Origin: a virus
IMG/VR virus record: IMGVR_UViG_3300044675_002751
Coordinates: 24,090-88,089 of that record
Length of the DNA: 64,000 bases
Strand: one strand, 5' to 3'
This document shows positions 10,482 to 33,910 of this stretch, in pieces; positions within the stretch are counted from its first letter, which is position 1, and every line of letters begins with the position of its first letter. A model generated the notes under the pieces. It was not told the DNA's origin. It searched no databases and worked only from the letters and a program-made list of their open reading frames with translations. The position numbers and the translations under genes were made by a program.

Positions 10482-13400
10482 TTACTTACGTCCAAACTCC
10501 ATCTTTCTTAAGGCAGTTACCGGGTCTACCTGAGATCCGGTAACTCCAAAGATGTCAGCTACGTCATTTAACAGTTTTGGCTGTCCCTCTTTTTGGAACC
10601 AGTAAGGACCAGCATCTCTTTTATAATAACCAGCTGGGTTATCACTTAGAAACTGACTTGTGTGATCCAAGAATTCCAAAGGTTTCTTAATCGTAGTACC
10701 ATACAGTGTTCTAGGATCTAATATAGCACCTGATGTACTTTTGAGTACCTTCCAGTTTCTTCCTAATGTTGTTGGACCCCATGAGCCAAATGATTCTACT
10801 TCAGAAAGAGTACCCAGTGTAGCAACTAACCCATGGTTAAACAACCAACCACCGAAGTTAAAGTCATCTTGATTTAAAGCACCACTTCGTTTTCTCATCT
10901 TTTCAAACCTGTCTTCATCACCTTCTTCGTATCCAAAGACAGATGAAAGTATTATTAAAATAGCCATCTGATGAGTTATGTCTGATGCAAACTTCAGCAT
11001 GTTTCTCTTTTGTTCATCTGTTGTCCACTGCATGCTAGATGTACCATATTTCATGATATCTCTTGCCACCTGTATTACGGAGGTATAATAACCTGTACTA
11101 ACCCCGCCAAGTGCTGCACTAGGACGTGTGACCGCAACTCTGTTCATCAGCATTGATGTAAAGTAACGTTTTAAGAACATGGCTATAGACATGAGAGCAT
11201 AACGCTGTGCTTCAGGCTGGTCCATACGTGCGTATGTACCATTAAGTCTATTACCTAACTCGTGTATCCTGTTCTTAACTTCATTGAACTTTTTACCACC
11301 TGGTGCATACTCTTTGTCTATACCAGACTTAAGTTCTATCTGACCATTTACAACTTCAAATGCATCTATATAGTCTATCTCTTTAGGTTTACCATCAACT
11401 ATCTGCTCTACCTTTACATGATGCATTACACCGCTAAAGAGTTCAACAACAGTTTCTATTTCTAACCACTTTCTTGGAGACATCATAAAACTCAGACTGG
11501 CTGCATCTGATGCCAAAGAACGACCAAACTGTCCACCCATATCAGTTGCAGAACCATCACCTAATGTTGTATTAAGTACCTCTTGTGTAGGATCAAAAAT
11601 CTGCAACAGCTGCGTATCCAAAGAACGGTTGCCTGTCTTGTATAGTTGTGAAGAATATATTGAGAGCATCTTGAAAGCACGAAACTTACCACGCCGATAG
11701 CTGTTCCAGTTTATATATCTACCACTGCTGGCTTCATTCTGCAGCTGAACAATAGCACTTTGTCTGTTTTTGATAGCTGAAGGTAAGATGTTCATTGAAA
11801 ACATTCCAAAGCTAGCTAACTTAAGTAAGGCATTTATACTCTTCAAAGCAATAGGTGTATCACTTAACCAGCCTGTTTTAGTCTTACCTTCAAACTCTCT
11901 TTCATATAAGTTACCAATTGCCTTAGCCCTAACACTAGCTCCTTTTTTAGAAAGATAAGATTTGACACCAGTCTTCTGATACTGCCATTTATTAATCTTA
12001 CCCATTTCCTTAATAGCATTGTCTGGGCTGCCTACTGCTTTTTTCAAAGCTTGAGCAAAAGGATTAAGCTCAATAAGTTTTTTCTGCTTTAGACCAGAGT
12101 GCATATATCTAAGCATGCTGTCTGCTATATTCATAGACACCTGCCCTGGATCCAGAGCATAGAGACCAGTGATAGGTACCTTGTTGATTTCTTCATCAAA
12201 CATGTCTGCATAAATCAGCTGCTCAGGCTTAAAGTTTAATCCATCCTGAACATCATCTGGAGCTTTAGCAAAATACTGTTTTACACGTGTAGCCCATTCA
12301 TAAAACTTATTACCGGTCTTACTAGCCTGCAATGATTCCAAAGCAGGTTTACGGTAACGTGGTATTTGCATATACAATTTACTTTCACGAGCTAATCCTT
12401 CCTGGAACTTAAGATGATATTCTTTCATCTTTTCCAGTACAGCAAATGCTGCTGGATCTTCACGGCGTAGTTTTTCATAATCAGGATTGTAATACCTGTC
12501 ATCTACAGCTCCTTCTTCTAAAGACTTAGGTAGCCAGTTACCACGGTTATCTATAGTCTTACCCACTTCACGCTTTGTACGGAATTCTTTCTTTACACCA
12601 CGGTAGAAATAAGAAAGGTTTGGTTTACCCATAATCACTTCACCGCTGGATAATGTGATCTTTTCGTAATGATCAGGGTTGTTAGGACGTGTACGGTTCC
12701 ATATAAAAAGACGCTCATATACAATCTTGGTGTCATTAATACTTTTATCAAACACCTCTTTAGCTATATGATTATCTTTAAACCATTGCTCAAACTCAGG
12801 AGACTCTTTGAACAGCTCAACATAAGATGCAGGATCTAATAATGTAGAGGCAGAGTCGTTATCTACAGGAGCTCTGCCCATCTTACCTAAGTAGTTATTT
12901 ATAATATCTACATAGTAATCCGTAGCTTCCTTACTCTGAAGATCACCTAGCTTAGAATAAAGAGCTTGCATTTCAGTTTTAGTAAACTTATCTACGCCAA
13001 GGCTATTCTTACGTTCAATAAGCTCATCCATTCTTCCACGCTCCTCTTGAGAAAGCTTTTCACGAGCTACAATCTTTTGGAAGTAACCAGAAAGTTCATC
13101 CATTTCTTCTCTGGTAAGACCAGAGAAACCTGCCATAGAGTTACGTTTAGCAAGAGCTGCCTCTTGTAACTGACGTACTTTCTTTTTACTATTCTCAGAT
13201 ATATCTGTACCAATCACCTGACCGTCCTGGTCACGAAACCCGGTTGCTATATCAAGCATACCTTCCATTTCTTCTGAAGAGTCAACAGCTTTACGTATTT
13301 CAGGACTGAGACCGGCCATTAATTCGTTAAGATCTGCTAACACTTTATTACGTTCTTCAAAAAACTCTGGAGTGTAAGCTATAACTGTATTGTTCTTAAT

Positions 13401-16400
13401 CCACTTATCACGTTTTTCCTTATACTCATCTGACTTCTCATCTACACCATTGTCTACAAGACTCTGCTCAAAACGCTTTAAGTTAGATTCAAATAAACCC
13501 TGTATAGGAACCCATTCAAAAAAGTCTCTTGATGCTTTACGATACTCTTTTTCAATCTTAGCCAGCTCCAGATCACGACCTGTTTTTGGATTACCATTAA
13601 GATCAGTGAGAGAAGCAAGCTGAGAATACTCTCTCCAAAGAATCTTTTTCTCTTCTGCAATAAAGTCAAGTGCATCATCATCATAGTTCATAGCATCCAG
13701 TTCTTGAATCTGGTTAAGCAAGATCTGCTTACGCCTGTATGCCTCACGACCCATCTCAGAATCATAGATCTTCTCACGCTCATAGTACTCAGGTACATAC
13801 TCCTGGTGGAAATAATCTCTACGTAACTTACGCATTTCTTTGAGCTTCTGATCAGCCAAAGTCTGGTCACCATCAGCTACTGCCTGGTCATAATCATATT
13901 TAAGTTGGGCAGAGTCAGCAGTGAAGTTATTAAACTTATCTTTAAAAGACCACACCTCTTTAGTAGCAAAATTACCTTTCTCATCTATGTAAGGAACTTT
14001 TTCTAGGCTAACTATTTTACCCATCAGCTCAGAATAGTTTCTACGACTATAACCAGCTGCGTTCAATAATGGGTCAAGATCACGTACAAAATCATTTATA
14101 TTACGTTGGGCTTTGGCATCTACGTCATTATATGCATTCTTAATAAACATAGCAAAACCTCCCACAATAGGATCTGGTGAGTTTGTATATGCTTCTAAAA
14201 ATGCAGAGTAACTATTAGTGTCACCAAGTTTACCTGTCAGCATATCTTTAAGTTTTTCCTTATCAATACGCATCTTTTCATACTTTGCCTTCACTTCATC
14301 TATCTTAGCTTTAGGAGCATTCTTGGCTACAAGAGCATCTATTTCTGCAGTGTACATCCTATCAATCTCTTTAGCCAATGGTTCTAAAGCCTCGTATATA
14401 ACATCGTTTACATTATCACTATAGATCTTGTTAATGATCCTTTCTGTCTGAGCAACTGTATTTTGAACACCAGATACCACTCTTCCAAATTCTGTATTTG
14501 GATTAAGACCTGCATCAGCTAAACGGTCAACGGTTTCATTAATAAACTTATCCCAGTTACGTACAAGAAGATCATAGTAAAATATGTTCCCTATCACCTC
14601 TTTAGAATCACCTTGTTTAGCCAACTCACGGACGTGATTTAGAATACTGTCACTCAGTTTCTGCAAACGAAGCATAGAGTGTACAAAACTTTGGGTAGTC
14701 TTAGCCCTTATTGTAAGATCGTCAAAGATGTCAGCAAGTCTTTCATCTATCTCAGAGTTAGAAAGCGTAGACTTCAGTTCTTGTAACTGACCCCTACCGG
14801 TTTCATCTACCAAGAACTTACGGGCTTCGTTGTAGTTCTTGTTTTCACGTATACGTCTAATGTGATTAGACACTACATCATAAAAACGTTTTACAGAATT
14901 AGACACTCCGCTATATTCTACAGCATTAAGCTCATTCATAAAGTTACTGATATCACGGATATAATCTACCATGTCAGCTTCTGTAACAATATCAGTTGAG
15001 ATGTTGAATTTATTTCCTCTGAGCATCTCAGCCAGTTCTGCCAATGAAGTGTCAGTAGATAGCTTGTCTATATTTATAGAAGTACCAAATACCTTACGGA
15101 ACATTTGCTTTAGGGCAAATATCATCTTCTTAATAAATTCACTAAACCCAACACTATCTTTTACACCATTTATCTGATTCTGAGCTTTAGCCGTTAATCC
15201 TCTAACAATAACTTCCTCCCTGAACTTCTGATCTGTCTCATTAACCTCAGGATATAACGCCTGTACACCAGCAATAATACTTTGTCCTTCTGGAGTAGAA
15301 GCAAGTTGGTTGTAAAGATTATTAAACAGTGTAGGATTCTGAACTGCAACAGCAGCTATAAGTGGGTGAGAAAACTCATGTAGGACATTCTCTGTAGAAA
15401 AACCACCGTCTACAAAATACACCTGACCATTAAAAAAGAAAGCTTTTTCTCCTCTCCATGGATTAGATGCATTAGCAGTTATCTCGGCAGCTTGTGCTGC
15501 AGTAACCATAGTGTAAGGAACACCTAGGTTCTCAGCTATGGTATCAGCCATAGTGCGGACAATATTTTGTCCTACCTCTATCTTCTGAGCTTGTTCTGTA
15601 GGTAATGTTGGCTCACTAACAACAGGATTAGTTAACTGAGAAAGGATTACATCCCCTGTTCTATCTTCTTGTCTAAATCCTTCAGTATCTCTTTGATCTC
15701 CTTGATCTCTTCTTTGGACATCTTGTCCTGCTGATACATTGCCAACATTCCTTGAAACGTTCCCTTCACCGACTCTAGAGAGCTCGTTTCCTTCAAAGCT
15801 TTTTGATAGATTTCTTGTAGAGGACTTGTCATATTCATATTTTAGTTTTTTATATGTATCAAAATGTTTCTTGTATACAGAACGCATTAACCCCTCAAAG
15901 TAGGGATACTTGCCTGTGGCATATATGTTACCATATAATTTAGCAAGAGCTGTTGTAAAGCTAGCACCTTCACCCGACACTGTAGTGTGATTAATTTCGT
16001 GGATGATGATATGGGTCATAAGACCAGTAGCTGCTTCTGCACTTTCTATGTTAAAAGACAATGGGTTAATAAAAATAGCATCAATAACCTTACTAACATG
16101 CACACCGCCATAACTCTTATCTATAGAAACACCTGCAAAAAACTTACGGTCTGTACCTGAAAGTTTTTCATACTGGTAACCCAATTCTTTACCAGCAAAT
16201 CTTACCATATCATAGACTACAGAGCCAAAGTCACTAAAAAACTCAATAGCTCCTGGTACGGCCAGGTAATCAAAGTTAGTATTGTTATGATACTGAGGCT
16301 CATTTTCTTTAAAACCGCTGGTGTCTACAGTGTTTTTACCAAGTTCAATATCTTTATCAGCTTTAAAGCTAGAACCATATTTTTTCTCACGCTCTACTTC

Positions 16401-17996
16401 TACCTGATCACCTGTCTCTTCATCCTTTACGCTATTACCAGTAATAACAAGCCTAGTTTTCTTGCGTGGTAATACGTCTTTGTACTTCTCATTTAGTCTC
16501 TTACGTTCAGCAATAGCATCATCCACCTCTTTATAAATCTTCTCTCTTTCTTCAGGAGTAAGTATCTTGTTTGGATCAGTCTTAGGTAGAGCACGGATGT
16601 TCTTAAATACATCTGCTGCGTCTTTTTCTGCCTCACCGGCTGCATACTTTCGTAGATATGCATACAAGCTGTTAATGTCTTCGGTGACAGTGTTTTTAAA
16701 ATCTTCTCTTTGATTATTGAAAGGATACTGCTCAGCAGTAGATCCAACAGACGGTTTAATGTTTATTACTATATTGTAAGGAATAGGCTCATAGTCTCTA
16801 AATTCAATACGTTTACTAAACTGAAAGAGTCCAGAAGAAAGTACCTCATGTCTTGGACTTTCTGTCTTCTCTTCTCCTACATATACTTCTGCTTCACCCC
16901 ATGCAAACTTTACATTAGAGAGCAGTGGTGGTAGTACTTCTTTAGAAATGTTTGCACCAATAGGTAACACTTGATTTTTTGTACTATTTCTCTTAGTTAC
17001 ATTCACACTGACATTCAAATTACCAATAAGTGGACGAGTTAAAATGTCAAATCTGTCTACAGGATTAGATGCATACTCACCTGGGAAATCAATAGATCTG
17101 GTAGTTCCTTCAGGAGTAGTATAACTCTCAGGTATCTTAACCTTTACAAACGTACCATTAGGTTCAGATGTAGGTTCAGTACGGATCTGAAAGTCATCAT
17201 TATATAGTTCAAGATTAGTAGCTTTTATAGAAGTCTTTATACCGTCTCGAACGGTAGCTACTTCTACATACTCACTACCTAATAAAAATTGCACTTTAGC
17301 CAAACCAAAACCTCCAGAACGCTCACCTTCAGAAAGTCCTTCTTTATTAGTACCACCTATAGAAAGAAATGCACTCTTTACAATGTCAGGTGTCATACCA
17401 ATACCATCATCTTTTATAGATATAGTACGCTCATCATAGTTAACATCAAGAGTGATATTACCCGGAGCGGCTGTATTTACAACCTGGGTACTTGGTTTAA
17501 AGTTTTGAATTTTTTGCTCTAAATCCTGCCTTCTATTAAACAATTCATTGACTTTCCATGGATCACCTGTAAGTACCTCACCTTGATCATCAAATGTAAT
17601 CTTTTTACTTTCAGCAGACATGTCTACCATCACTTTATTAAACTCCCTGATAAGAGCTTGCTTTTGCTCCTGTGGATTACCAACTACAGTTTCTTTCTTA
17701 CTAAGATTCTGTACGGTCTTAATGGCATCAAATGAGTTTTGTAACAACTCCTTTACTGCAACTTGTGCCAAAGGTTTGTTATACATAGTAGGACCAAGCA
17801 GCATAAGTAACTGCTTCTTGTTTACACCAATCTGTCCTTGTTCTACAGAACCTTCTCTGTTATACATGACATATTCTTTGGCAGTAGGAATGCTCCCATT
17901 ACCAATGGTCATATAAGCACGGAAAGCTTCTTTCTCTCCGAGCTGTTCAACGAGACTAGTCCACTCTACTGAATTTTTGTTAGGGCAGGTTAACAT
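10482..17996 (-). CDS. Giant virion ejection/cargo protein with N-terminal GHKL (Hsp90-like) ATPase and two zincin-like HExxH motifs
   Basis: ELLQNSFDA, DDGIGM, GGFGLAK, NGT boxes; HEINH and HEFSH; C-terminal hydrophobic segments; position next to the virion RNAP as in crAss-like phages. Confidence 0.8.
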   Translation of the reverse strand: MLTCPNKNSVEWTSLVEQLGEKEAFRAYMTIGNGSIPTAKEYVMYNREGSVEQGQIGVNKKQLLMLLGPTMYNKPLAQVAVKELLQNSFDAIKTVQNLSKKETVVGNPQEQKQALIREFNKVMVDMSAESKKITFDDQGEVLTGDPWKVNELFNRRQDLEQKIQNFKPSTQVVNTAAPGNITLDVNYDERTISIKDDGIGMTPDIVKSAFLSIGGTNKEGLSEGERSGGFGLAKVQFLLGSEYVEVATVRDGIKTSIKATNLELYNDDFQIRTEPTSEPNGTFVKVKIPESYTTPEGTTRSIDFPGEYASNPVDRFDILTRPLIGNLNVSVNVTKRNSTKNQVLPIGANISKEVLPPLLSNVKFAWGEAEVYVGEEKTESPRHEVLSSGLFQFSKRIEFRDYEPIPYNIVINIKPSVGSTAEQYPFNNQREDFKNTVTEDINSLYAYLRKYAAGEAEKDAADVFKNIRALPKTDPNKILTPEEREKIYKEVDDAIAERKRLNEKYKDVLPRKKTRLVITGNSVKDEETGDQVEVEREKKYGSSFKADKDIELGKNTVDTSGFKENEPQYHNNTNFDYLAVPGAIEFFSDFGSVVYDMVRFAGKELGYQYEKLSGTDRKFFAGVSIDKSYGGVHVSKVIDAIFINPLSFNIESAEAATGLMTHIIIHEINHTTVSGEGASFTTALAKLYGNIYATGKYPYFEGLMRSVYKKHFDTYKKLKYEYDKSSTRNLSKSFEGNELSRVGEGNVSRNVGNVSAGQDVQRRDQGDQRDTEGFRQEDRTGDVILSQLTNPVVSEPTLPTEQAQKIEVGQNIVRTMADTIAENLGVPYTMVTAAQAAEITANASNPWRGEKAFFFNGQVYFVDGGFSTENVLHEFSHPLIAAVAVQNPTLFNNLYNQLASTPEGQSIIAGVQALYPEVNETDQKFREEVIVRGLTAKAQNQINGVKDSVGFSEFIKKMIFALKQMFRKVFGTSINIDKLSTDTSLAELAEMLRGNKFNISTDIVTEADMVDYIRDISNFMNELNAVEYSGVSNSVKRFYDVVSNHIRRIRENKNYNEARKFLVDETGRGQLQELKSTLSNSEIDERLADIFDDLTIRAKTTQSFVHSMLRLQKLSDSILNHVRELAKQGDSKEVIGNIFYYDLLVRNWDKFINETVDRLADAGLNPNTEFGRVVSGVQNTVAQTERIINKIYSDNVNDVIYEALEPLAKEIDRMYTAEIDALVAKNAPKAKIDEVKAKYEKMRIDKEKLKDMLTGKLGDTNSYSAFLEAYTNSPDPIVGGFAMFIKNAYNDVDAKAQRNINDFVRDLDPLLNAAGYSRRNYSELMGKIVSLEKVPYIDEKGNFATKEVWSFKDKFNNFTADSAQLKYDYDQAVADGDQTLADQKLKEMRKLRRDYFHQEYVPEYYEREKIYDSEMGREAYRRKQILLNQIQELDAMNYDDDALDFIAEEKKILWREYSQLASLTDLNGNPKTGRDLELAKIEKEYRKASRDFFEWVPIQGLFESNLKRFEQSLVDNGVDEKSDEYKEKRDKWIKNNTVIAYTPEFFEERNKVLADLNELMAGLSPEIRKAVDSSEEMEGMLDIATGFRDQDGQVIGTDISENSKKKVRQLQEAALAKRNSMAGFSGLTREEMDELSGYFQKIVAREKLSQEERGRMDELIERKNSLGVDKFTKTEMQALYSKLGDLQSKEATDYYVDIINNYLGKMGRAPVDNDSASTLLDPASYVELFKESPEFEQWFKDNHIAKEVFDKSINDTKIVYERLFIWNRTRPNNPDHYEKITLSSGEVIMGKPNLSYFYRGVKKEFRTKREVGKTIDNRGNWLPKSLEEGAVDDRYYNPDYEKLRREDPAAFAVLEKMKEYHLKFQEGLARESKLYMQIPRYRKPALESLQASKTGNKFYEWATRVKQYFAKAPDDVQDGLNFKPEQLIYADMFDEEINKVPITGLYALDPGQVSMNIADSMLRYMHSGLKQKKLIELNPFAQALKKAVGSPDNAIKEMGKINKWQYQKTGVKSYLSKKGASVRAKAIGNLYEREFEGKTKTGWLSDTPIALKSINALLKLASFGMFSMNILPSAIKNRQSAIVQLQNEASSGRYINWNSYRRGKFRAFKMLSIYSSQLYKTGNRSLDTQLLQIFDPTQEVLNTTLGDGSATDMGGQFGRSLASDAASLSFMMSPRKWLEIETVVELFSGVMHHVKVEQIVDGKPKEIDYIDAFEVVNGQIELKSGIDKEYAPGGKKFNEVKNRIHELGNRLNGTYARMDQPEAQRYALMSIAMFLKRYFTSMLMNRVAVTRPSAALGGVSTGYYTSVIQVARDIMKYGTSSMQWTTDEQKRNMLKFASDITHQMAILIILSSVFGYEEGDEDRFEKMRKRSGALNQDDFNFGGWLFNHGLVATLGTLSEVESFGSWGPTTLGRNWKVLKSTSGAILDPRTLYGTTIKKPLEFLDHTSQFLSDNPAGYYKRDAGPYWFQKEGQPKLLNDVADIFGVTGSQVDPVTALRKMEFGRK

Positions 17997-18013
17997 AGGG
18001 TATGTTCTTTATA

Positions 18014-24000: not shown

Positions 24001-27000
24001 AGTTATCTCTTATCTGTTCCCTAATAGCGTTATTATCTGTAAGGAAGAAACCTATGGATCTCAAAAACTGCAAAGCTTTTTCCTCATTAATAATAATATT
24101 GTCTTTACCAAATATTTGATAATATGGAAAGTCTTTAATAACCTGTTTAGTGTTCAGCTCATTACCAGCTGCAGACTTGTTAATATATGCACCACGGGGC
24201 ATTCCCTGAAACTGTGATACAAATGTTTTTTCTACCTGGCGGAACTGGGGAGATACTTCTGAAAACTCAAAACTAAATCCACCTTCACTGTCAGATATCA
24301 AACGTCCTTCTTTAATAGGTACTCTGTATACAGAAAAGTCTCTAAAGAAGTTGATCCATATCTTCATGTATGGCCAGTTCTTAGTTTGTGTATGGTCCAA
24401 CGGATTACGCATTCGGTCCACCAAGGCCTTTAGCTCAGGAAAACGTTGAGAAGCTTCTGATAACTTACCATACATCTGGTTAGTTGTATTAGAACCAGCC
24501 ACTGTATTTATTACAATACTCCAGGTTTTGTTAAAGTCAACCAATTTGGGTACACCTAAAGCATTAAGTACAGGATTACCTTTCCTATCTACTTGAGGAA
24601 GACTTTTGATAAGATATACTATCTCGTTAGATGCAAGTTCACGTACAGAGAGTTCGTTACCCTTACGCTCAAAAGCGTTCTGTCCATACTCTTCACGCAT
24701 CTGCTGTTCGGTCTTAGCCAGGGGATTTTCTGTGTCTTTAACTTCAGCAGCTTCTTCATTTACACTTTGGTCATACCCATCCATATCAACCACCCTGTCT
24801 TCAAATGTGAAGTAAGAGCTTCTTTTCTTATGGAAAGCAATGACACCAGTAGTTTGTTCACCCTTTGCCACCTTGGAGAAATCTCCCCAGTTTGCAAGAG
24901 CAAAGTCTAGAATACGTGCTGCAGCAGGTTTATCTACCAAATCTTCTCTCAGCTTTTCTAACTTATTTTTAATATCTATCTCATAAAGTGGACCTATTAA
25001 CTCAGGCCTGGTAAATATTGATCCAATGCTAAATTTGTAATCAGAAAGTGTAGATGCTATTAAAGAGTCTATAGTTTCTACTAGTGTAATAGAATCCTGG
25101 TAGTTCAGTGACTCATCCACCTTTGGATCTACAGCCTCCATTCCTTTATTAAGAACACCAAACTGTACGTTCTTTATAGAAGGTGTATAATCATTGATGT
25201 CTCCTATATATAGTTTATCATATAGTTCTTGAATACCTTTAACAGCAGTACGGTCAGCAGCTATGTCTTTAAAGCTGTATCCGCTAAACAACTGCTTTAG
25301 AAAGTTCCATATCTTTCTAAAGAGGCTATTACGTACAGGACGTCCATTAATAACATTCTTACGGTCAGAGAGTACGTACTTTCTAAAGTCTTCTGCCATA
25401 AACTCTTCCAGCTGCATATCAGTGGCTGCACTAAACTTTACAGTGCGTCCGTCAGCAGTTTTAAAACTACCAGTAAGTTTACGGGCTTCATTATAAAGAG
25501 CTTTCTTCTGCTCTTTAGTTAAGAACATCTGTGAGAAAGCATGCCAACCCTCATGATAAAGATCTGTAAAGTTAGATCCGCTCCATAGTGTAATACCAGA
25601 AACAGTAAACTCAGCTAGTGCATTGGAGTTTACTACATTAAACATTACCTGAAAAGGAACAATCTTAGATAGTGGTGAGTTATTATACCACTTTTCAGCA
25701 GCATCAATCTGCTCTTTGGTAGCTGTACTATCAAGTAGTAAAGACTTTTTTAAAGAAAAGTCTGTACGGTCAAGCAATGCTTTAAACGCACTGACTGGGG
25801 TATCTGTAGGTGTAGACTGCTCTAAAGAAGAAGTTTGTTCTTTAGGCTGAACCTTTACCTCACCAAAAATCTTTTTCTGTGTTTCTGCAGTAGGGAATAT
25901 AGTATTATAAGCATTAAGGCTTACTATCTTACCCTCCTCATTTTTAGCCAGGTTAGTATAAAAGTTATCAGCCAAAAAGTTATTATAACGCTCTGGCTGC
26001 AGTGTCACCTTACCATCCAGGTTAACCGGCATATTAAAAGTTGTACCAACTAAGTCTTTATTAATGTTTACAGTTTGAGTGTTCAGGTTTGTTACAAACT
26101 TGTCCTTGTTCTCAGCTGTCACCTCAAAGGTCTCTCCACCTTGTTTGATCATAAGCTTACCATCTATCTCAAAGATGTTTGTATCATTAGAGAAAGTAAA
26201 CTGCTTTAGTGTTTTGATCTTGTCAATATTGGAAACGTCAGCGTTAAAGATCATATCAGCCAGGTTCGGTACTAGGCTAGGTATGTTCTGAAACTTAGGT
26301 CTGCGTATAAGAAGCGGAAACTCGTAATCTGGTACATTAAAATAAACACCCCCGTTAATAAGAATACCAGTTTCTTGGTTAGAAATCCAAGGTTTAAAAC
26401 CTTCAGGTAGCTCAATAGAACTTATAGAATTTTTCTTAGAAAAGTCTTCCTTTACATAACCGTTCTTACCTGGACTAACAGAAAACAATAACACCTGACT
26501 TGGGTTAGATATAATAAACTGTCTTGATTTTTCCAAGACATCCATTTCCTGGTTACGTTCTTTAGTAAGTTCTTCCACTGTACCAAAACCTTTTCGTACA
26601 AGATCTGCTACAGTTTGTACACGACCCACCATACGCTGACCTGCCACTTGTCCTTTAGCCTCGTTGCTCTTAGACGGTGTATATGGTCTACGCATCTTTC
26701 CATAAGCAATGACACCCTTATCTTTTTCTACAGGAGTTCCCTGTTGGTCAAAGTATAAAATATTACCCTGCTTGTCAGAAAATACAAGATATGTTTCATC
26801 ACCTTTATCCCTCTGCTCCATTTTCTGCTGAGCTGTTTTAGCAAACGGGGTTCCTGCAGCATCATCTGTAGAATAGTATTGTTTGTCTGCCTCTTGTAAT
26901 TGATCAAATGGAATCATAGAAGCAGGTATCAATCTTAAGTAGATACCAGTTACATTACCCAGAGTTAGTTTATCAGCTGTAGGTCTGTTGTACTGACTCA

Positions 27001-27613
27001 TCAGATTGTTGAGCTTCCTTACTACAGCATAGTAGGCACGTTTAACTGGATCCGGATCTGGTATATTCTGTTCTGCCTTTACTCCACCATAAGCTTTAGC
27101 TTCTTGGTTAAATACAGCAAAAGCTGTTTCCGGGGCGGCAACAAAACTAATTTCAGAGTTTAGTAATGCTTTTTTCTTTTCCTCATCCTTTTTTTCAATT
27201 TCTGTGTACCCATCTGTCGGTAGCACACCTGTAGAAGGGTTGCTTTCCTCTATAATTTCAGCCGCTGCTTCATTAGTTGCTAAGGCAGGTTGAAGAAACT
27301 TAGCTACGTTTTGTATGTCAGCATTAAAGTCTGCGTCTAACTGATCAAGCTCAGAAAGATTTACAGCACTTTTTCTCATATGAGCTTTACTATCTTCAAA
27401 CATAGCATAGCTCAGTAGCAACATACTTGGCATATGCTGTATGTAGTCCATAGCATTTGCCTGCTCTGCACCAGCATCAACGAGTGTTTTATACAAGTCT
27501 CGGATAGCTTGTAAAGCATTAAAATTATCACCACGATTTTTAGAAGCAATGACTGCTCCGTGTACAACACCAAATAGTGATGATATCTGATCTTCTGATA
27601 ATCTACAAGCCAT
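18014..27613 (-). CDS. Virion-packaged crAss-type two-barrel DNA-dependent RNA polymerase with zincin-like domain
   Basis: Catalytic GADFDIDKL loop, RIPVQG, EGDGQGWI, STQLRKL; HEGWH..EEFMAE zincin; 3199 aa. Confidence 0.92.
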   Translation of the reverse strand: MACRLSEDQISSLFGVVHGAVIASKNRGDNFNALQAIRDLYKTLVDAGAEQANAMDYIQHMPSMLLLSYAMFEDSKAHMRKSAVNLSELDQLDADFNADIQNVAKFLQPALATNEAAAEIIEESNPSTGVLPTDGYTEIEKKDEEKKKALLNSEISFVAAPETAFAVFNQEAKAYGGVKAEQNIPDPDPVKRAYYAVVRKLNNLMSQYNRPTADKLTLGNVTGIYLRLIPASMIPFDQLQEADKQYYSTDDAAGTPFAKTAQQKMEQRDKGDETYLVFSDKQGNILYFDQQGTPVEKDKGVIAYGKMRRPYTPSKSNEAKGQVAGQRMVGRVQTVADLVRKGFGTVEELTKERNQEMDVLEKSRQFIISNPSQVLLFSVSPGKNGYVKEDFSKKNSISSIELPEGFKPWISNQETGILINGGVYFNVPDYEFPLLIRRPKFQNIPSLVPNLADMIFNADVSNIDKIKTLKQFTFSNDTNIFEIDGKLMIKQGGETFEVTAENKDKFVTNLNTQTVNINKDLVGTTFNMPVNLDGKVTLQPERYNNFLADNFYTNLAKNEEGKIVSLNAYNTIFPTAETQKKIFGEVKVQPKEQTSSLEQSTPTDTPVSAFKALLDRTDFSLKKSLLLDSTATKEQIDAAEKWYNNSPLSKIVPFQVMFNVVNSNALAEFTVSGITLWSGSNFTDLYHEGWHAFSQMFLTKEQKKALYNEARKLTGSFKTADGRTVKFSAATDMQLEEFMAEDFRKYVLSDRKNVINGRPVRNSLFRKIWNFLKQLFSGYSFKDIAADRTAVKGIQELYDKLYIGDINDYTPSIKNVQFGVLNKGMEAVDPKVDESLNYQDSITLVETIDSLIASTLSDYKFSIGSIFTRPELIGPLYEIDIKNKLEKLREDLVDKPAAARILDFALANWGDFSKVAKGEQTTGVIAFHKKRSSYFTFEDRVVDMDGYDQSVNEEAAEVKDTENPLAKTEQQMREEYGQNAFERKGNELSVRELASNEIVYLIKSLPQVDRKGNPVLNALGVPKLVDFNKTWSIVINTVAGSNTTNQMYGKLSEASQRFPELKALVDRMRNPLDHTQTKNWPYMKIWINFFRDFSVYRVPIKEGRLISDSEGGFSFEFSEVSPQFRQVEKTFVSQFQGMPRGAYINKSAAGNELNTKQVIKDFPYYQIFGKDNIIINEEKALQFLRSIGFFLTDNNAIREQIRDNYKSIGFLYNAVKWMAEKNQMPSNPINALRKAGPKGGESSNVNKILSIEAQDSGKYTNNAVTNVNGDIVYDLSLNNSITKLLNDINNPELDYSVDEDDSLDKDNPTKKRGLVQYAHLQHLDFRRNPHAKYAILLNSMFSIPSGKLVDMANKNKRIADGTNLSSGFVTMNIVNLDGIKSVIETIAGGQSVQSGIKTTNLDPASKFLFDIHTMLGQGIMELPRHASKSTAYGISVSKINSPFNTKDTRHLYISPGHFYEKEGGAKGNWLSHSVDLLLPKIAAEMERMAIIKQGQVPNIPGFNERGQEFMMFDDILINTKEQLKKMANADDSLSVINAPEIKQKITDDIRVYLNGLFEENMKFFQEMPFISPELLHSSRDGKDIASYIRKDVSVAVGEDQTAMLQDVAIKAFTVNALIHNMEMVSLFYGDLALYNHNKEEFHKRNASIGSTGRIFASDEAVNQFINNLGRGYARAIGANERSFDGTIRTAVFKDNNVPSVYYKEYLEALTEKYSKEEAIKILEPYEKMTEGDGQGWITFDAYRILSILEGAWSEKQNDLYNRIIAGEQVDPAEITEFFPTKKFQYAGPVKTEKLHVQGFHKFSLVPLIPSLVKGTNMEVFHDNLVKQGVDYALFESGSKLATITSNGKPDSLYENDDYNNRVVKPWNEGEPTYTPNDIFIQYLKDQVDIQSTWKNKTVFSTQLRKLIINDTFKQGFALTGDFDKLVKDFEGLLEEMQEYKKQELLKQVGWKENASGELTGSMRSLLEFVAREMERLELPEHEIDFVRESLESGSFTDLSFSLNAEKIEKMLNNIVVKRLVKQKMNGEMLVQVSGAGFESRNRYTNPSEEEIKKYRGTNDLPTYRPGEKDKNGKRGKTTAMKVKISLKGDYYKLLNLKHNDGQKIGTRERLNEMIKDDQWLDKGDNRKMITMVGVRIPVQGLNSMEFMEVYEFLPEEAGSIIVPPAEIVAKSGADFDIDKLTIFQPNIGIKINRDKSKGKIKELSTKYPDLDFSMDNINIILDAAENDFSVYELTEDEQKVYKVLLQEATDELPTYIKGKGLKSSENKVVEKIREILEHPDNFDALIRPNNTDLVKGVADELASENIQGYDPFAVKTGKPRTAIIKGKETKVISPTRVLEPRYNMFVHDRTNIGKKTLGIGAVDNAYSSIFKRVGARLEKTYTHYNFNKETGQIDLSKKPQVRPINIRMKHNTMTEKGEEYISLSDINTVTMDKVSDLIGQLMNGWVDIEKDAWIFNINGNNIAGPVLLFMLEAGVDFRTAAYFVSQPLVVDYIKEMYKVESPFYNAANPENQASSQKGLRKFGIKKDFYTRLGIGALTKDGNLTNDLLYKAIENFNKNRTYDVASLEKVIKSKDRNSPEAIAGLLHFIELEEVTKQLTNIKLTVNVDTAPSKSLFAATERLDKIEGLEYVDAVPENMKDKILTDSPISSFLVQKFQLGILKPLMQLRGDAQINSFLLSKVKSRSFATAFPIAEKFVATFHNDLPMYLLQNYLKGVDINNIKEYKGLSVKQALPVKNVQLRQGAFVKDGVMYLDFNQIESDFNTKAFAGQGYKSQGLATVDAETFNMGGNYQNLQEYIHFVMEREHLRSITPVGNESREVYEQKLATRALELSFNFYHMLKAPGVSIADQFLAIKAKYPQLAEQYMIFDQLGYVNEGAKADSEGNVVQSNNKKLKTLKLTSSRTDKDLANVLHENLVRLADPMTVKVENPVQNAEISRFFNRMIVAEYIRAGATKSSNNLASILPKDTLLKLMAEPLKEITEMKDKSKLLNDYFKRFTDIWNTSNSSTRQRFRNYLYTPDVSSVSTSSTDGTQLTKNIQGLFVYPSIAGAGSAKALLEKNSSIMLVYPNFKDSKDVFGVMQKANNSISFPITQDGKKVLSDETFEENAKMINDAITAIETQYENGNEVAFPEQGLTVVNGKDMLAAAPRTKNYMVLELYKRLNYVMPGSETDAALRKQMQSNQDITDEMVDEFMKKCFGE

Positions 27614-27616
27614 TGC

Positions 27617-30600
27617 TTACTTTGTTTTACATCCTAGGTTCTGAAGAAGATTGTTAAGATTTTGCTGGTTATCTGTACCTGCAGCTTTAGCCGCATTCTC
27701 TCCTGCTTGTTTTACTGCAGCAGAATTTTGTGTAAATGCACTTTTAGTATCCTGTGAAGCCTCGACTTCTTTTTTATCTTGCGGGGTTATTTCTATATCT
27801 GGGGTGGGTTCCATAGAGACAGCTTTACCAGGTTCAACATTAGAGATTTTCTGAGACAGGTCTTTGGCAGCAATAACTTCTGCAACACTCTGTGAACTAC
27901 CGGCAATCTTTACACTTACTTCGTTATTGTTTACAGATTTTACAAAGCCTTTTCTACCGTCTACAAATGTAACTATATCACCTTTCTGTAGATCTTTTGG
28001 GGATATGTTCTGTAGAAGTTCTCCACGTCTTTTAGCAAGCATTGTAGTTATATCTTTACTCTTAGCTTGACCAGTAGAGATAAGCTCAATAAGATCTATT
28101 GTAATTGGTTTACTATCTGCTTTAGATAAATCAGGAAGGTCTTTAATAGAAGATACAGAATCTATAAGTTCCTGAGCTTTTTGAGAACCTGTTTTTTCTG
28201 CAGGTCCAGGCTTTTCTGTTTCATCTACTTCAGGAGTAGTTTCAGCAGGTTTAGCTCCTTCTAAAGCAGCTAGTTCTGCGTTATATTTAGTATTTAAAGC
28301 ATCAACTGCATCTTGATACTTTTTAATGTAAGTAGTTTCATCTACTCCAAGTTTCTTAGCATCATCCTTTAAATTAGCCTGGTTAGGAAGCTGCCACTTA
28401 TTAGTACTGGCATTCCAAAATGATTTACTAACTAAGTAATTATTGTCTCTATCTACAATAGCAGCAATCTTTTCATTCTTATCTGCATACGCAAATAGAC
28501 CATTGCCTAAATCTATATAAACACCGTTAGGTAGTGCTTGAGATAAAGGAATGCTGCCTGAGATTGTACCATATAGTGTTTTTTCTATATCAGCTTTCTT
28601 ATCAGAAACTTGTGTAACAACAGGTTCTGTACGAGCTGTTCCTTGTGCTTGTGCAAGAGGAGAATCGTTAGGTTGAAGAACAGCCGTTGTAGTACTTGTT
28701 GTGGCTGGCGTAGCTGCTGCTGCAGGTTGAGCTTTTCCTTTGTTAAACTGAGCTTTAATCCTAGCAGCTCTTGGGGAAATACGTACAAACTCATCAAAGC
28801 TCATTTCTGAACCATACTCTTCTATGTATTGATTATAAGCGTCCTCAAGTTTAAGTTGAAGTTCAGGATCTAAAACTTCTGCAGCAGGTGTCGTAGTACT
28901 AGTAGTATCAGCTGGTTTAGAGTCTTGAGTAGCTACTGGTTTTTCAACAACTGGGTCAGCTGTAACAGGAGGAGCATCATCTCTAATCTGATCATCTATT
29001 TCCAAAATAGCCTGTACTGCAGCATACTTAGGTGAACTAGGATCCAGATCTTTTAATGTACCAGCATCAATAAACGTAGTAGGTTTTTTACCTGTACGTA
29101 CGAACTCTTGAAGTTCTTCAGGATCCAACATTACTCCCTGAGCAGTTATTGCTTTAATAAGCTCATTCATTTCCATAATACGCTGACCACGCTCTATACG
29201 GGTAGCTGTGTCTGCTTCTCTATTTTGAAACAAGTCCGTTAACTTAGCATTTAATCTTTCAGCATGCTTAAAAAGATTACCAGGGTCCAGTAGGTTATTA
29301 ACTATTTGATTATAATTACGAGCATTACTATTTAGATTATAGTAGTCTAATAGTTTTACAAAAGAGTCATCAATCTTATCATCAAATACGTAATCACTAT
29401 TTACAGCAGCTATCTGCTTTAAATAAGCTTTATAACTTTCTTTTAAAGGATCAATAGTGTCTTGTCCAAACTGTATAATAATCTGACCGTTCTCTTCTAC
29501 CTCAGTAGTGTTTGCTTTTTCAAGATGGGTACGAAGCTTATCTCTATAATCCATTAACCGGTCAAGTCTTTCTTTCTTTTGCTCTCCTAGTTTCTTTTGT
29601 TCAGGTTCTGTAATTGCCTGGTAGGATTTAACTTCTTTGTCAAGAAGAGATATTTCATTATCAAGAACATCTAAACTTGTAAGGACAGTAAAGTCTGATG
29701 AAGAAGCTTTTGATACAGGACGGTTGCTAGCAAGATCACTATATAAACCATTCATTCTTTGTAACGAACGGTCAAAGTTATACTGAGAAGCAATAGCTGT
29801 TTTCTTTGCTGCTTCAAATGCTCTGAAGGCAATAGCTTCCTGAGTAAACTCAGGAGTGCCTTTCTTTATCTTGTTAGGTGTAAATGGATTCTTAAACTGC
29901 TTACTGATAGTATCATATCTATGTTTTATTTCTTCAGCACGTGATATGATCTCTTGAAGTTTCTCTGTATTTTTAGCTGACTCAGGTGTACCAAGAAAAT
30001 TAGCAAGTTCTTTACTATCAAGTTTAGAAAGTTCCTTGTAGTTATCTATTAATCCTTCAAATGTTCCGTTGTCCAGAGCAGTAAAGATGTGGTCAAACAT
30101 CTTTAAATCTTTAGCATCCTGGAATGTTTTAGCATCCCCTGCAGCCTCAGCTTGGTTCATCACATCTGAAGTGTGTTTCTGTACAACAGCACTCTCGTTA
30201 GTAGAACTAAAATATTTAAGAGGATTTTTATAAAGTTCATTTAACCCATCAATAGCTTCTTGACGTGTTTTCTGTTTGTTAGCTTTAAATTCAGCATACT
30301 TTTTTGGCTGAGCCACTCTATAATAAATACTAGGTACATCTTTAAGGAAAAGATTCTGAGCTTTTCCCATAAACCCTCCCATAAGAAATCCTGAAGCAAA
30401 AGTGTCTAGTCCACGAGTAGACGTAAATTCTTTACTGATTGCATCCCACGCATGACCAGCAGCATAATCAAAACCACCTAGTGTAGGATCTTTATATACT
30501 CCATCATAGTATGCACTAACAGCATCTGATGTTACATTCTGTAAGTTTTCCTGAATACCCTCAGCAAAGTTTCTTCTAAAGTAACTTAATCCCATGCCAA

Positions 30601-32029
30601 CATAAGCCTTTGGGTTCATTAAGTTATTTTTAGTACTCTTTACCCATCCGTCCGCCAAGGCATCAAAATATCCTGTTCCCTTCTTAAACCCAACACCTTT
30701 TTGTGCCATCTCAGCTGCCTCATCCAGGGTCTTAAAACCACGGAACTTAAACAGACCGTCAAGCACAACACGGTTGGTCAGGTATATAGTAGGGAAGTTA
30801 ATAGCTGTTACACCATAACCAGTATCTTCTGCTTGCTCATATATTCTTTCAAGATCTTTTCCTTCTGGAGCTTTACCGTTGTCTTTCTCATATTTATCCA
30901 TCAGCTCGTTAATCTTATCTAACCTAGCACTACCACCTTCTAACTTTGATTCAGAAAGTGCCAGATTAAGATCACGCATATCTCTATAGAAAGATCCAAA
31001 TGTCTGCTTAGCTTTAGCTGCATTACTTGCATTACGAATACTTGCAGTACCCCTTGCCATATCTACAACATCATCTGTAGTACGTGTAAGAGGATTTACA
31101 AACTGTAAAGCTCCTTTACCTAAAGTGTAAGCACCAGCTTTTGCTGCTGTATAAAATGTCTTTGCGTCTTGTATTTTAGAAAGAGACTTAGCAAGAGCTA
31201 CTCCTCCGCTTGCAATATTACCTATAGCATTAGTATTGTATCCTTGCTTTACTCCTTTACCAAAACGAGCAAAGTTTGCTGCTGTTCTCATTGCAGCAAT
31301 ACCACCCATTGCACCTTCAGAAACAACGGTTGCACCAAACAATGCAGCTTCTTCAGCTAAAATACTTAAACCAATACCGACTGTATATGCAGAGTTAAGA
31401 GCAAAGTTATTTACCCAAGCTCCTACTCCGGCTAGTCCTCCTTCTCTGCTAGACATCCCTATAGACTGAAGTCTTGCAAAGTTTTCTGCAGTCTGATCAT
31501 CAGGACTAAAAAAATCATCACCTTTTGCTAAACTTGCCATTGATCTATAACCAGATACACCTCCTTCATAAGCTAGTGATCCAAAGACAGAAGCCATACG
31601 ACCATAGTCCTGCCAGATAGTAGTGTTCTTATTAAAGTTCTTTTCGTTATCTACAAAAGGAGAAAAGCCCACCTTGTTAAATGTCTCTTTACCATAGCCT
31701 AGATAACGATCTACGTTTAGTTTCTTAGCATCAAATTCTGCTACCCTAGCTGCTTGAAACTGGTTACGACTTTGATTAGCCATCTGAGCAATACCGCCAC
31801 CTTCTGTTAATCCTTTTAACCACTGACGCTGTATATCTGAACGCTTTTTTAGATCAGCCATAGTTACTGGCTTCTTCTTAGCAGGAGGATCACCAGGATC
31901 AGTTTGGTTATTTTCTAACTCCTGTAAATCAAAAGCACCTAGTGCATCTGTAGGGTCTGTAACACCTCCCAGATCTAGACCAGCACCTATTGCCTGAGTA
32001 TCAAGAGTATTTAATGTATCTACTGCCAT
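27617..32029 (-). CDS. Large virion ejection protein with putative membrane-spanning segments
   Basis: Gly/Ala-rich hydrophobic segments at about aa 200-250 and 545-560, EGIQENLQ motif, coiled coils; immediately upstream of the RNAP. Confidence 0.75.
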   Translation of the reverse strand: MAVDTLNTLDTQAIGAGLDLGGVTDPTDALGAFDLQELENNQTDPGDPPAKKKPVTMADLKKRSDIQRQWLKGLTEGGGIAQMANQSRNQFQAARVAEFDAKKLNVDRYLGYGKETFNKVGFSPFVDNEKNFNKNTTIWQDYGRMASVFGSLAYEGGVSGYRSMASLAKGDDFFSPDDQTAENFARLQSIGMSSREGGLAGVGAWVNNFALNSAYTVGIGLSILAEEAALFGATVVSEGAMGGIAAMRTAANFARFGKGVKQGYNTNAIGNIASGGVALAKSLSKIQDAKTFYTAAKAGAYTLGKGALQFVNPLTRTTDDVVDMARGTASIRNASNAAKAKQTFGSFYRDMRDLNLALSESKLEGGSARLDKINELMDKYEKDNGKAPEGKDLERIYEQAEDTGYGVTAINFPTIYLTNRVVLDGLFKFRGFKTLDEAAEMAQKGVGFKKGTGYFDALADGWVKSTKNNLMNPKAYVGMGLSYFRRNFAEGIQENLQNVTSDAVSAYYDGVYKDPTLGGFDYAAGHAWDAISKEFTSTRGLDTFASGFLMGGFMGKAQNLFLKDVPSIYYRVAQPKKYAEFKANKQKTRQEAIDGLNELYKNPLKYFSSTNESAVVQKHTSDVMNQAEAAGDAKTFQDAKDLKMFDHIFTALDNGTFEGLIDNYKELSKLDSKELANFLGTPESAKNTEKLQEIISRAEEIKHRYDTISKQFKNPFTPNKIKKGTPEFTQEAIAFRAFEAAKKTAIASQYNFDRSLQRMNGLYSDLASNRPVSKASSSDFTVLTSLDVLDNEISLLDKEVKSYQAITEPEQKKLGEQKKERLDRLMDYRDKLRTHLEKANTTEVEENGQIIIQFGQDTIDPLKESYKAYLKQIAAVNSDYVFDDKIDDSFVKLLDYYNLNSNARNYNQIVNNLLDPGNLFKHAERLNAKLTDLFQNREADTATRIERGQRIMEMNELIKAITAQGVMLDPEELQEFVRTGKKPTTFIDAGTLKDLDPSSPKYAAVQAILEIDDQIRDDAPPVTADPVVEKPVATQDSKPADTTSTTTPAAEVLDPELQLKLEDAYNQYIEEYGSEMSFDEFVRISPRAARIKAQFNKGKAQPAAAATPATTSTTTAVLQPNDSPLAQAQGTARTEPVVTQVSDKKADIEKTLYGTISGSIPLSQALPNGVYIDLGNGLFAYADKNEKIAAIVDRDNNYLVSKSFWNASTNKWQLPNQANLKDDAKKLGVDETTYIKKYQDAVDALNTKYNAELAALEGAKPAETTPEVDETEKPGPAEKTGSQKAQELIDSVSSIKDLPDLSKADSKPITIDLIELISTGQAKSKDITTMLAKRRGELLQNISPKDLQKGDIVTFVDGRKGFVKSVNNNEVSVKIAGSSQSVAEVIAAKDLSQKISNVEPGKAVSMEPTPDIEITPQDKKEVEASQDTKSAFTQNSAAVKQAGENAAKAAGTDNQQNLNNLLQNLGCKTK

Positions 32030-32030
32030 A

Positions 32031-33899
32031 TTAATTACCAGATAACTGTTTAGGATCTCTGACGCCTTTAAGTTGTGAGTGCTCTCTTATCAACTGCCTG
32101 TTAATTCGGAAGTTCTCAAGAGCTTTCTTATATAGATCTATATCTAACTGATCCAGATCAACGCTCAGATCATGTCTATTTTTAACACCCGGTAAGTCTT
32201 TAATGTCAAATGTGTCCATTTTAGCCGTTTCCAAATTATAAGCAACACCATTTCCAGTGACCACATACTCACCTTTCTTCTTGTCCAATACTATATTATA
32301 GGTCATGCTGCTAGGAATAGTTCTACTAAAAGTACCGTTTCCACTAAGGTTAATCATACCTTCTACAGGAGATATGCTTGTACCTTTCATTGACTGCTTT
32401 CCTATTGTAGTAGTACCACTTACATTCTTTGGTACATAAATTGTAATACCGGATCTAACAAACTTGTGATTTTTACCATCTGAGTCCCTGGCAATGTCTG
32501 GATTGTCTTTTGTTCCAAGATGTCTGTCAAAATAAGAAGAACGCATTTTAATATGATAGGCATGGTAATTTTCATCACCACCGGATATCGGTACAAAAGA
32601 AATATCACCTGTTACACGTTTATCACTATTTTTTTTACGATCAGTGTTTACAATATCATCTTGTAAATCTTGCCAAATTACCTTAACCATATTCTTAGAA
32701 GCCTCATCAGTTTCAGACGGAATCTCAACATTGGTTTCATCTAACTCTCCTTGTGCAAAAAGTACATCATCACTACTAGTAATAACTTTCAGTAGATTAA
32801 TAGTATTTTTCATCTCCTCTTTTACCTGATTATCATCATCAAATGCATCATCCATATCAAACTTATACTGCTGTTTAGAAACAGTTGTTTTGATCCCACC
32901 TGCATTATTATCCATTAAACCTTCTGCTGCTGCTTTAATCTTTCTGGTTTTGGGATTCTTGTTATACTCTTCAAACACTCTTCTTAATACATCGTCATAA
33001 TTCAAATTCTTATATTTGTTAGCAAGTATTTGATACTGAGCTTGCTCAAGCATACCGTAACCTTCTTCACTATTTTGCATTTTAGGTCTAGAGTCTAGTG
33101 GAATCGTTTTACCACTTGAGGACGGAGTTACAACAACTCCATACGGAGTTTTAACACGTTGACCAGGCTTTGCCTCTTGAGCCCATTTACCAGCCATAGG
33201 GTTTGGCATGTCCGTACGCTGCATAAATAAAGATCCACCAAGAGGTTTAGGGTTTTTCTTTCTCCACTCTTCTAATTCTGTATTTATTAAATTAGCCTGG
33301 TATTGTTTTATATCTTTTATAGCCTGATTACGATTCTTAAATTGTCCGTCATCAGTTAACAATAGTTTATGCCAACCGTTGACTTTCATCTTAGCATCAA
33401 CATTAATAGCTGCATTTTTAATATCACCGAACATTATCTTATTTGCCTCAGCTATATATCCAAAATCATCATCTACTCTCTTTTGTAACTTAAGTAATTC
33501 AACAGCCTGGTCGTCATCAATGTCTGGATTTGTAGCAGCCATCTTAGCCTGCTCGTATAGCTGATCACCATATTTTTCTATGAGAGCTGGTATTTGATCT
33601 AAGTTTTCAATAGGTTTCCCTTTTATTTTAGGTAAACCCTGTGATAGCTGAAATGCTTGAACAACATAGTTACTTAAATCTTCATTGTATGCTTTATACT
33701 GATTTTGAAGATATTTATTATTTACTTCATACAAAGGAGTTTCATCTTTCTTCTGATTCTTTTCAACATAAATATGCCCACCCATCATAGAAGTCACCCT
33801 AACACCATCATCTTTTGATGTTGTTGCTGTTTCTTTAGTAGATTTGGTAGCACCTTTTATTGGATCTTCTCCCCCATCAAATGTTTGCATATCTTCCAT
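32031..33899 (-). CDS. Putative virion cargo protein
   Basis: 622-aa Cys-free ORF in the ejection module. Confidence 0.65.
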   Translation of the reverse strand: MEDMQTFDGGEDPIKGATKSTKETATTSKDDGVRVTSMMGGHIYVEKNQKKDETPLYEVNNKYLQNQYKAYNEDLSNYVVQAFQLSQGLPKIKGKPIENLDQIPALIEKYGDQLYEQAKMAATNPDIDDDQAVELLKLQKRVDDDFGYIAEANKIMFGDIKNAAINVDAKMKVNGWHKLLLTDDGQFKNRNQAIKDIKQYQANLINTELEEWRKKNPKPLGGSLFMQRTDMPNPMAGKWAQEAKPGQRVKTPYGVVVTPSSSGKTIPLDSRPKMQNSEEGYGMLEQAQYQILANKYKNLNYDDVLRRVFEEYNKNPKTRKIKAAAEGLMDNNAGGIKTTVSKQQYKFDMDDAFDDDNQVKEEMKNTINLLKVITSSDDVLFAQGELDETNVEIPSETDEASKNMVKVIWQDLQDDIVNTDRKKNSDKRVTGDISFVPISGGDENYHAYHIKMRSSYFDRHLGTKDNPDIARDSDGKNHKFVRSGITIYVPKNVSGTTTIGKQSMKGTSISPVEGMINLSGNGTFSRTIPSSMTYNIVLDKKKGEYVVTGNGVAYNLETAKMDTFDIKDLPGVKNRHDLSVDLDQLDIDLYKKALENFRINRQLIREHSQLKGVRDPKQLSGN

Positions 33900-33910
33900 A
33901 CAGTTCTTTT

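Follow-up and report, generated by a model that had tools for sequence, protein, structure and literature searches.

Here we report the analysis of three giant viral genes whose products share an unusual distribution of cysteine (Cys) residues. The window analyzed is a 64-kb stretch of the 88-kb IMG/VR virus record IMGVR_UViG_3300044675_002751, for which the completeness estimate is 70%. The three genes are abutting open reading frames (ORFs) on the minus strand, with intergenic gaps of 3 and 17 nt, and encode protein A (27617..32029; 1470 amino acids, 160.8 kDa), a virion RNA polymerase (RNAP; 18014..27613; 3199 amino acids, 361 kDa) and protein C (10482..17996; 2504 amino acids, 284 kDa), the first, middle and last members, respectively, of the protein chain considered below. 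The sole Cys of A is residue 1467, the fourth from the C-terminus (codon 27629..27631, context LGCKTK). The RNAP has Cys only at residues 3 (27605..27607, MACRL) and 3196, again the fourth from the C-terminus (18026..18028, KKCFGE), and the sole Cys of C is residue 4 (17985..17987, MLTCP). This count, made by script, agrees with the original prediction that the three proteins hold four Cys in 7173 residues, with none at the N-terminus of A or at the C-terminus of C; the codon coordinates were confirmed, and there are no internal Cys.

Twenty-one other ORFs of the window contain 150 Cys in 6844 residues (2.2%), and at this rate the probability of encountering four or fewer Cys in 7173 residues is ~3e-62. 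Given one, two and one Cys in the three proteins, the probability that each lies no more than four residues from a junction-facing end is ~1.4e-11.

The identification of the middle protein as an RNAP, also part of the original prediction, was borne out by a match to PDB entry 6vr4 (crystal structure of gp66 of phage phi14:2; E-value 2e-27) and by a DFDID catalytic-type motif at residues 2174-2178 (21080..21094, minus strand), as in the phi14:2 RNAP preprint (bioRxiv 10.1101/2020.03.07.982082). Almost all tblastn matches of the RNAP lie in RNAP genes of Crassvirales and FpV4-like phages, including crAss001 and phi14:2, at 21-31% identity, and the DFDxD motif is present in 61 of the 66 RNAP-size ORFs of relatives. 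Protein C contains a GHKL-type ATPase-like domain at residues 177-266 (17199..17468, minus strand; Pfam HATPase_c_3, E-value 2.6e-7, above the cut-off) and an HExxH motif at residues 666-670 (15987..16001, minus strand), the latter within a weak match to a YgjP-like metallopeptidase (E-value 0.007, below the cut-off). The motif is reminiscent of phi14:2 gp65, in which a zincin-like domain has been reported (bioRxiv 10.1101/2020.03.07.982082). The ATPase-like domain lies ~400 residues upstream of HExxH, a pairing that we have not seen noted for crassvirus cargo.

Protein A has no Pfam or PHROG family match, and PHROGs searches with the RNAP, with C and with the two proteins encoded upstream of A gave no match. 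Neither megablast of the giant-gene block nor tblastn of A found a match in the phage collection, and A is taken as the counterpart of phi14:2 gp67 and crAss001 gp47 solely on the basis of its position. From the homology of the RNAP to phi14:2 gp66, together with virion mass spectrometry of the corresponding blocks of cultured phages, we infer that A, RNAP and C are packaged and ejected.

Conservation of the terminal cysteines

A scan of IMG/VR based on the RNAP yielded 79 related loci at 28-72% identity, in which non-identical intact ORFs were counted. In these orthologous triplets, where the original prediction had proposed that the pattern be checked, the terminal-Cys rule is kept by every intact copy. 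The A orthologues carry a C-terminal Cys in 48 of 49 cases and an N-terminal one in none (0/49), the RNAP orthologues carry both an N-terminal (52/53) and a C-terminal Cys (53/53), and the C orthologues always carry an N-terminal (55/55) and never a C-terminal Cys (0/55). Internal Cys in the orthologues of all three proteins amount to 19 in 398,947 residues (0.005%). Both apparent exceptions were rejected: the RNAP of locus L032 is frameshifted, its true N-terminus, MVNCSLS, lying in another frame, and in locus L035 protein A is broken by a frameshift. These frameshifts, at L032:7670-7868 (N-terminal part of the RNAP) and L035:6880-6940 (A), could be either assembly errors or recent pseudogenes.

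The N-terminal Cys of the orthologues is found at residues 3-6, the C-terminal Cys is trailed by 0-9 residues, and both TGT and TGC codons occur at each Cys site. The residues around the Cys form junction-specific motifs, namely L-[LF]-N-[ND]-L-G-C at the C-terminus of A, C-x-L-[STN]-x-x-Q-[IV]-E at the N-terminus of the RNAP, and C-P-[NI]-[KI]-x-x-x-E-W at the N-terminus of C. These flanking motifs differ among clades, while the Cys itself is constant. The last 230 residues of A (27620-28309, minus strand) include a small conserved domain with the motif GD-x-V-x-F-x-x-G-x-x-G, which is invariant in seven relatives; in the C-terminal region of A this domain is followed by an acidic linker and then by a terminal L-x-N-L-G-C helix.

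The same rule was observed in cultured and classified crassviruses. In phi14:2, gp67 has its sole Cys at the very last position (1797 of 1797), gp66 has Cys at residues 3 and 2179 of 2180, and gp65 has a sole Cys at residue 3. In crAss001, the sole Cys of gp47 is residue 2339 of 2341, gp50 has Cys at residues 5, 1334 and 2404 of 2412, and the sole Cys of gp49 is residue 5. In Dulem virus 41, a protein with Cys at 2471 of 2474 is followed by one with Cys at residues 4 and 2247 of 2247 plus three internal Cys, and then by one with Cys at residue 5. Suoliviridae, Intestiviridae and FpV4 likewise obey the rule. What gp67-gp66-gp65 of phi14:2 and gp47/gp50/gp49 of crAss001 have in common with the window is a homologous RNAP flanked by giant genes and an identical terminal-Cys rule, whereas similarity is confined to the RNAP core: between A or C and the proteins of the cultured phages no similarity is detectable, and phmmer searches with A and C against these proteins gave no match. 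The block proteins of phi14:2 and crAss001 have been detected in virions by mass spectrometry (PMC10172136; bioRxiv 10.1101/2020.03.07.982082). A further scan based on crAss001 gp50 contributed little, most of the genomes recovered being near-identical.

In crAss001, the genes for gp47 and gp50 are on different strands and are not neighbours, so that the terminal-Cys rule is a property of the proteins rather than of a DNA junction or of coupled translation. A nucleotide artefact of gene junctions is excluded by this strand arrangement, by the use of both Cys codons and by the varying distance of the Cys from the protein end.

Cysteine pairs follow gene splits and fusions

As the block is divided into more polypeptides, the Cys pairs increase in step: two proteins have one pair, three have two, and four have three. 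Three proteins with two pairs are encoded in the window, phi14:2, crAss001 and Dulem virus 41, and two proteins with one pair in FpV4, cr118_1, cr1_1, p-crAssphage LMMB, crAss002 and cr271_1. In FpV4, gp32 (4287 amino acids) has a single Cys, at residue 4286, and none at the N-terminus, and gp33 has Cys 3 plus an internal Cys at residue 1461. The Suoliviridae member cr118_1 has Cys at 4943 of 4946 plus four internal ones, followed by a protein with Cys 3; in cr1_1, of the same family, Cys 4548 of 4551 and an internal Cys 4026 are followed by a protein with Cys 5 and an internal Cys 1884. The corresponding residues are Cys 1956 of 1957 and Cys 3 of the next protein in p-crAssphage LMMB, and Cys 2748 of 2749 and Cys 3 in cr271_1. 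In crAss002, Cys 2019 of 2020 is followed by gp33 (L084:13948-26685), in which M-S-C occupies residues 33-35; the annotated start of gp33 is probably 32 codons too far upstream, with Met33-Ser-Cys35 being the usual M-x-C N-terminus.

Judging by position, length and tblastn match to the RNAP, the single ORFs of 4287-4946 codons in FpV4, cr118_1 and cr1_1 appear to be fusions of A and RNAP. These putative fusion ORFs have no N-terminal Cys. Profile searches based on the C-terminal region of A and on the N-terminal region of the RNAP gave no match in the proteins of the cultured phages and hence no position for the fusion point. The fused forms share with the window the same RNAP block, although it comprises two giant proteins there rather than three; they differ in that the link is a peptide bond, whereas in the window it would be a reducible disulfide. 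Cleavage of the fused forms into their components has been supposed in the literature (bioRxiv 10.1101/2020.03.07.982082). The existence of fused block forms supports covalent continuity as the conserved trait.

Blocks of four proteins were recognized in relatives of the window. An extra protein of 242-261 amino acids is encoded between RNAP and C in L025, L027/L028, L032 and L054, and one of 655 amino acids in L060; a threshold of 300 amino acids for ORFs had hidden the small chain member, leaving apparent gaps between RNAP and C in L025, L027, L028, L032 and L054. These linker proteins (L025:17742-18470, L028:17640-18398, L032:20202-20987, L054:12312-13082 and L060:19620-21587) have exactly two Cys, one at residue 3 and one as the final residue. 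In L017, L023, L043 and L047, the RNAP ORF ends with a stretch homologous to the C-terminal 120 residues of these linkers (E-values 1e-8 to 1e-18); there the linker module is fused to the RNAP, which has only its two terminal Cys. At L070:18784-19088, a short Cys-containing ORF between RNAP and C breaks the rule, and it may be an inserted gene.

Among the neighbouring genes, those on the plus strand include PolB, ThyX, a deoxynucleoside monophosphate kinase and DUF932, and those on the minus strand include virion structural and tail-fibre genes; by their predicted products, the genes around the giant block are consistent with a crAss-like phage. The two proteins encoded upstream of A (622 and 473 amino acids; 32031..35332, minus strand) are Cys-free, as are their orthologues, and are likely to be further cargo outside the chain. 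In several clades, ~1000-residue relatives of the 473-residue protein retain a Cys128/Cys134 pair. Two other Cys-poor virion proteins of the window have exactly two Cys each, at residues 45 and 58 in an 853-residue protein (35402-37963, minus strand) and at residues 1416 and 1430 in a 1472-residue protein (39310-43728, minus strand). All these close pairs may be local disulfides or metal sites. The replication module also encodes a protein that combines DUF5522 with a cREC_REC domain (cyclic-phosphate processing receiver; 9663-10304, plus strand) and a spore-photoproduct-lyase-like protein (4723-5577, plus strand).

Predicted docking and precedents in other phages

The original prediction had suggested modelling of the terminal peptide pairs, and this was performed for the A-RNAP junction, using RNAP residues 1-450 (27-row alignment) together with the last 230 residues of A (7-row alignment). 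The model predicts a heterotypic docking with both Cys in the interface. Three runs gave ipSAE scores of 0.73, 0.74 and 0.69, compared with 0.00 for the best-scoring of the three controls. The mark of 0.73 is reached by 58 of 80 solved complexes and by 2 of 110 mismatched pairs, a calibration that is only rough here, as custom alignments were used. The predicted local distance difference test score (pLDDT) of the partners was at least 68, and the runs shared at least 53% of their contacts; like the docking scores, these values express the confidence of a model and are no measurement. The confident part of the predicted interface comprises RNAP residues 2-27, 43-74 and 97-104 and A residues 1412-1468. 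It contains both Cys, and no Cys-Cys distance is taken from the model. In the window, the docking segment of A would correspond to 27626..27796 and the receiving segment of the RNAP (residues 2-104) to 27302..27610, both on the minus strand. A subset of the residue pairs with the least error is antiparallel in the model (RNAP 12 with A 1461, 16 with 1457, 19 with 1454, and 23 with 1450). If this register is right, both chain ends would come together at one end of a helix pair, in the place that the hairpin loop of a fused protein would occupy.

A tail-to-head disulfide of this kind is known from an unrelated phage. Cryo-electron microscopy of cyanopodophage A4 revealed a disulfide between Cys1715 of gp27 and Cys5 of gp26, next to the site where a cleft of gp26 accommodates the C-terminal helix of gp27, and its authors describe the bond as stabilizing a mortise-and-tenon pre-ejectosome (PNAS 2025, PMC12002296). 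In the genome of Anabaena phage A-4L, the genes for gp27 (1717 amino acids) and gp26 (1114 amino acids) are adjacent in transcription order, and Cys1715 and Cys5 are the only Cys of the two proteins. In A4, the terminal-Cys signature thus corresponds to an experimentally observed tail-to-head disulfide. The likeness lies in adjacent genes for large ejection proteins, the upstream one having its sole Cys near the C-terminus and the downstream one near the N-terminus. Upstream members with a C-terminal Cys and no Cys that is neither terminal nor junction-facing are found here in A (1467 of 1470) and in the RNAP (3196 of 3199), and downstream members with an N-terminal Cys in the RNAP (Cys3) and in C (Cys4). 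A4 differs in that a single link joins two proteins of an unrelated family (Saffermanviridae), includes no RNAP, and was treated in the paper as a structural detail. In contrast, the window would have two links and its relatives one to three; they include the RNAP, extend across the order, covary with gene splits and fusions, and involve a bond that we infer.

Depletion of Cys is already a known kind of feature. The virion RNAP homologues of Schitoviridae (N4-like phages) contain 0.00075% Cys, which has been explained by passage through the oxidizing periplasm (Nat Commun 2024, PMC11445570), and N4 gp50 (L142:10524-21026) has no Cys in 3500 residues. The N4 unit resembles that of the window in being an ejected giant protein nearly free of Cys; it differs in being one polypeptide without terminal Cys, whereas the unit of the window is cut into pieces with a Cys pair retained at each cut. 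In T7 (gp14-16, L143:1229-8052), gp15 and gp16 are Cys-free.

The claim of the original prediction that such a chain had gone undescribed needs to be narrowed in view of the single link published for A4 (PMC12002296) and the Cys suppression published for Schitoviridae (PMC11445570). We found no description of the terminal Cys of crassviruses in the literature searched, the coverage of which was incomplete; the word cysteine is absent from both the crAss001 atlas (PMC10172136) and the phi14:2 RNAP preprint, and disulfide is absent from the latter. The new part is a multi-link, order-wide pattern that includes the virion RNAP.

A candidate disulfide-linked chain of ejected proteins

We propose that A, RNAP and C are translated separately and that the C-terminal segment of each protein docks onto the N-terminal segment of the next. 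Docking would answer two objections to the scheme: the correct partner could be recognized non-covalently under the reducing conditions of the cytoplasm, and a later oxidation could then seal the pair by a disulfide between the Cys, which lie 1-9 residues from the docked ends. The product would be a linear covalent unit of ~806 kDa, A-S-S-RNAP-S-S-C, functionally equivalent to the fused polyproteins of other crassviruses. Placement of the Cys at the extreme termini would keep the joined chain unbranched, and with all other Cys gone, loops and mistaken cross-links would be avoided during an exit from the capsid that requires partial unfolding and passage down a narrow tail. Both features fit a chain that has to remain unbranched on its way through tight passages, such as the constrictions of less than 50 Å in crAss001 (PMC10172136). 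We consider a docking-guided tail-to-head disulfide at each junction to be fairly probable. The original prediction had gone further, proposing an ordered A-RNAP-C thread that is pulled through the tail in sequence and released by reduction. Its tail-to-head pairing is strongly supported by the order-wide conservation, the covariation with splits and fusions, the predicted docking and the A4 disulfide. A further point in favour of the proposed bond is that crassvirus particles can contain disulfides, which were seen in crAss001 in proteins of the tail and of the portal vertex (PMC10172136). The formation of the bond in crassvirus particles, a role in co-packaging or ordered ejection, serial pulling through the tail, and reduction of the links in the cytoplasm would be further steps of the scheme, and we hold them conditionally.

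Several observations weigh against the proposed chain. Chemical evidence for an inter-protein disulfide has come from no crassvirus, and the cargo is not resolved in the maps of crAss001 (PMC10172136). As the cytoplasm is reducing, the bond is possible only after packaging or release, and of the window ORFs that were compared with Pfam or PHROGs, none was recognized as a thiol oxidase. Removal of Cys is not universal, since the RNAP fusion proteins of Intestiviridae have 6-14 internal Cys and crAss001 gp50 has one. Lone terminal Cys also occur where a partner is missing: an 861-residue upstream virion protein of p-crAssphage LMMB (L082:3045-5630) has its lone Cys at residue 860 and crAss002 gp30 (L084:3253-4926) at residue 550 of 557, in each case before a gene without an N-terminal Cys. 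Another loose end is T7 gp14, the only Cys of which is residue 2. Finally, four Cys could in principle be paired in other ways.

An alternative function of the same disulfides would be a structural lock, in which they fix the packed cargo or a 1:1:1 stoichiometry in the capsid, as for gp27-gp26 of A4, and no serial thread is formed. We regard this as unlikely, although not negligibly so. The authors of the A4 study describe a stabilized assembly and not a thread (PMC12002296), and the docking predicted for A and RNAP is a folded interface. However, a lock leaves unexplained why the Cys lie within nine residues of the termini in every lineage and why fused genes replace the pair, both of which fit linear continuity.

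The terminal Cys of docked ends might also be bridged by a metal ion (Zn, Fe or Cu). Such a bridge could form despite the reducing cytoplasm, which would remove the redox difficulty, and two-chain zinc hooks exist in other proteins. We judge it to be very unlikely, since each junction offers only two Cys and the flanking motifs contain no conserved His, Cys, Asp or Glu ligand. A single Cys4 site is unfit, as the Cys count grows pairwise with each extra protein, and the map of A4 shows a disulfide (PMC12002296).

We give still less credence to other thiol chemistry, or a signal, that does not link neighbours; the Cys might, for example, mark a processing site, anchor the proteins to the portal, the capsid or DNA, or take part in enzymatic ligation. 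The metallopeptidase-like HExxH of C and the processing proposed for fused forms (bioRxiv 10.1101/2020.03.07.982082) would speak for it, but a signal need not form complementary C- and N-terminal pairs that appear and vanish with splits and fusions, and the nine or fewer residues beyond any Cys are too few for an intein-like module. A lipobox or intein was excluded on the same count of residues and by the lack of a signal peptide. The least credible of the alternatives is a different disulfide topology, with the RNAP cyclized N- to C-terminus and A bonded to C, or with homodimers through like termini: four Cys permit three perfect pairings, but two-protein systems permit only the C-to-N heterotypic pair or homodimers, the A4 pair is heterotypic, the model docks the C-terminus of A onto the N-terminus of the RNAP, and a cyclized protein of 3199 residues would be expected to traverse a narrow channel poorly.

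The scheme can be extended into a wider proposal, which we offer tentatively as possible rather than probable: crassviruses and, independently, at least one cyanopodophage may use a terminal-cysteine code by which each cut in a giant ejected unit is re-joined by a docking-guided C-to-N disulfide. The ~0.8 MDa of protein would then act as one unbranched, reduction-cleavable polyprotein with fixed stoichiometry and fixed exit order, which would split into active RNAP and its partners in the reducing cytoplasm.

How a near-megadalton mass of protein, including the polymerase that starts the infection, is delivered through a narrow tail is an open question for crassviruses, and protein delivery is raised in structural papers on both crAss001 (PMC10172136) and N4. 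If true, the proposed chain would explain how the genes of the block could split and fuse freely in evolution, why A, RNAP and C avoid Cys, and how stoichiometry and exit order are set, and a simple sequence rule could then identify ejected cargo in uncultured phages.

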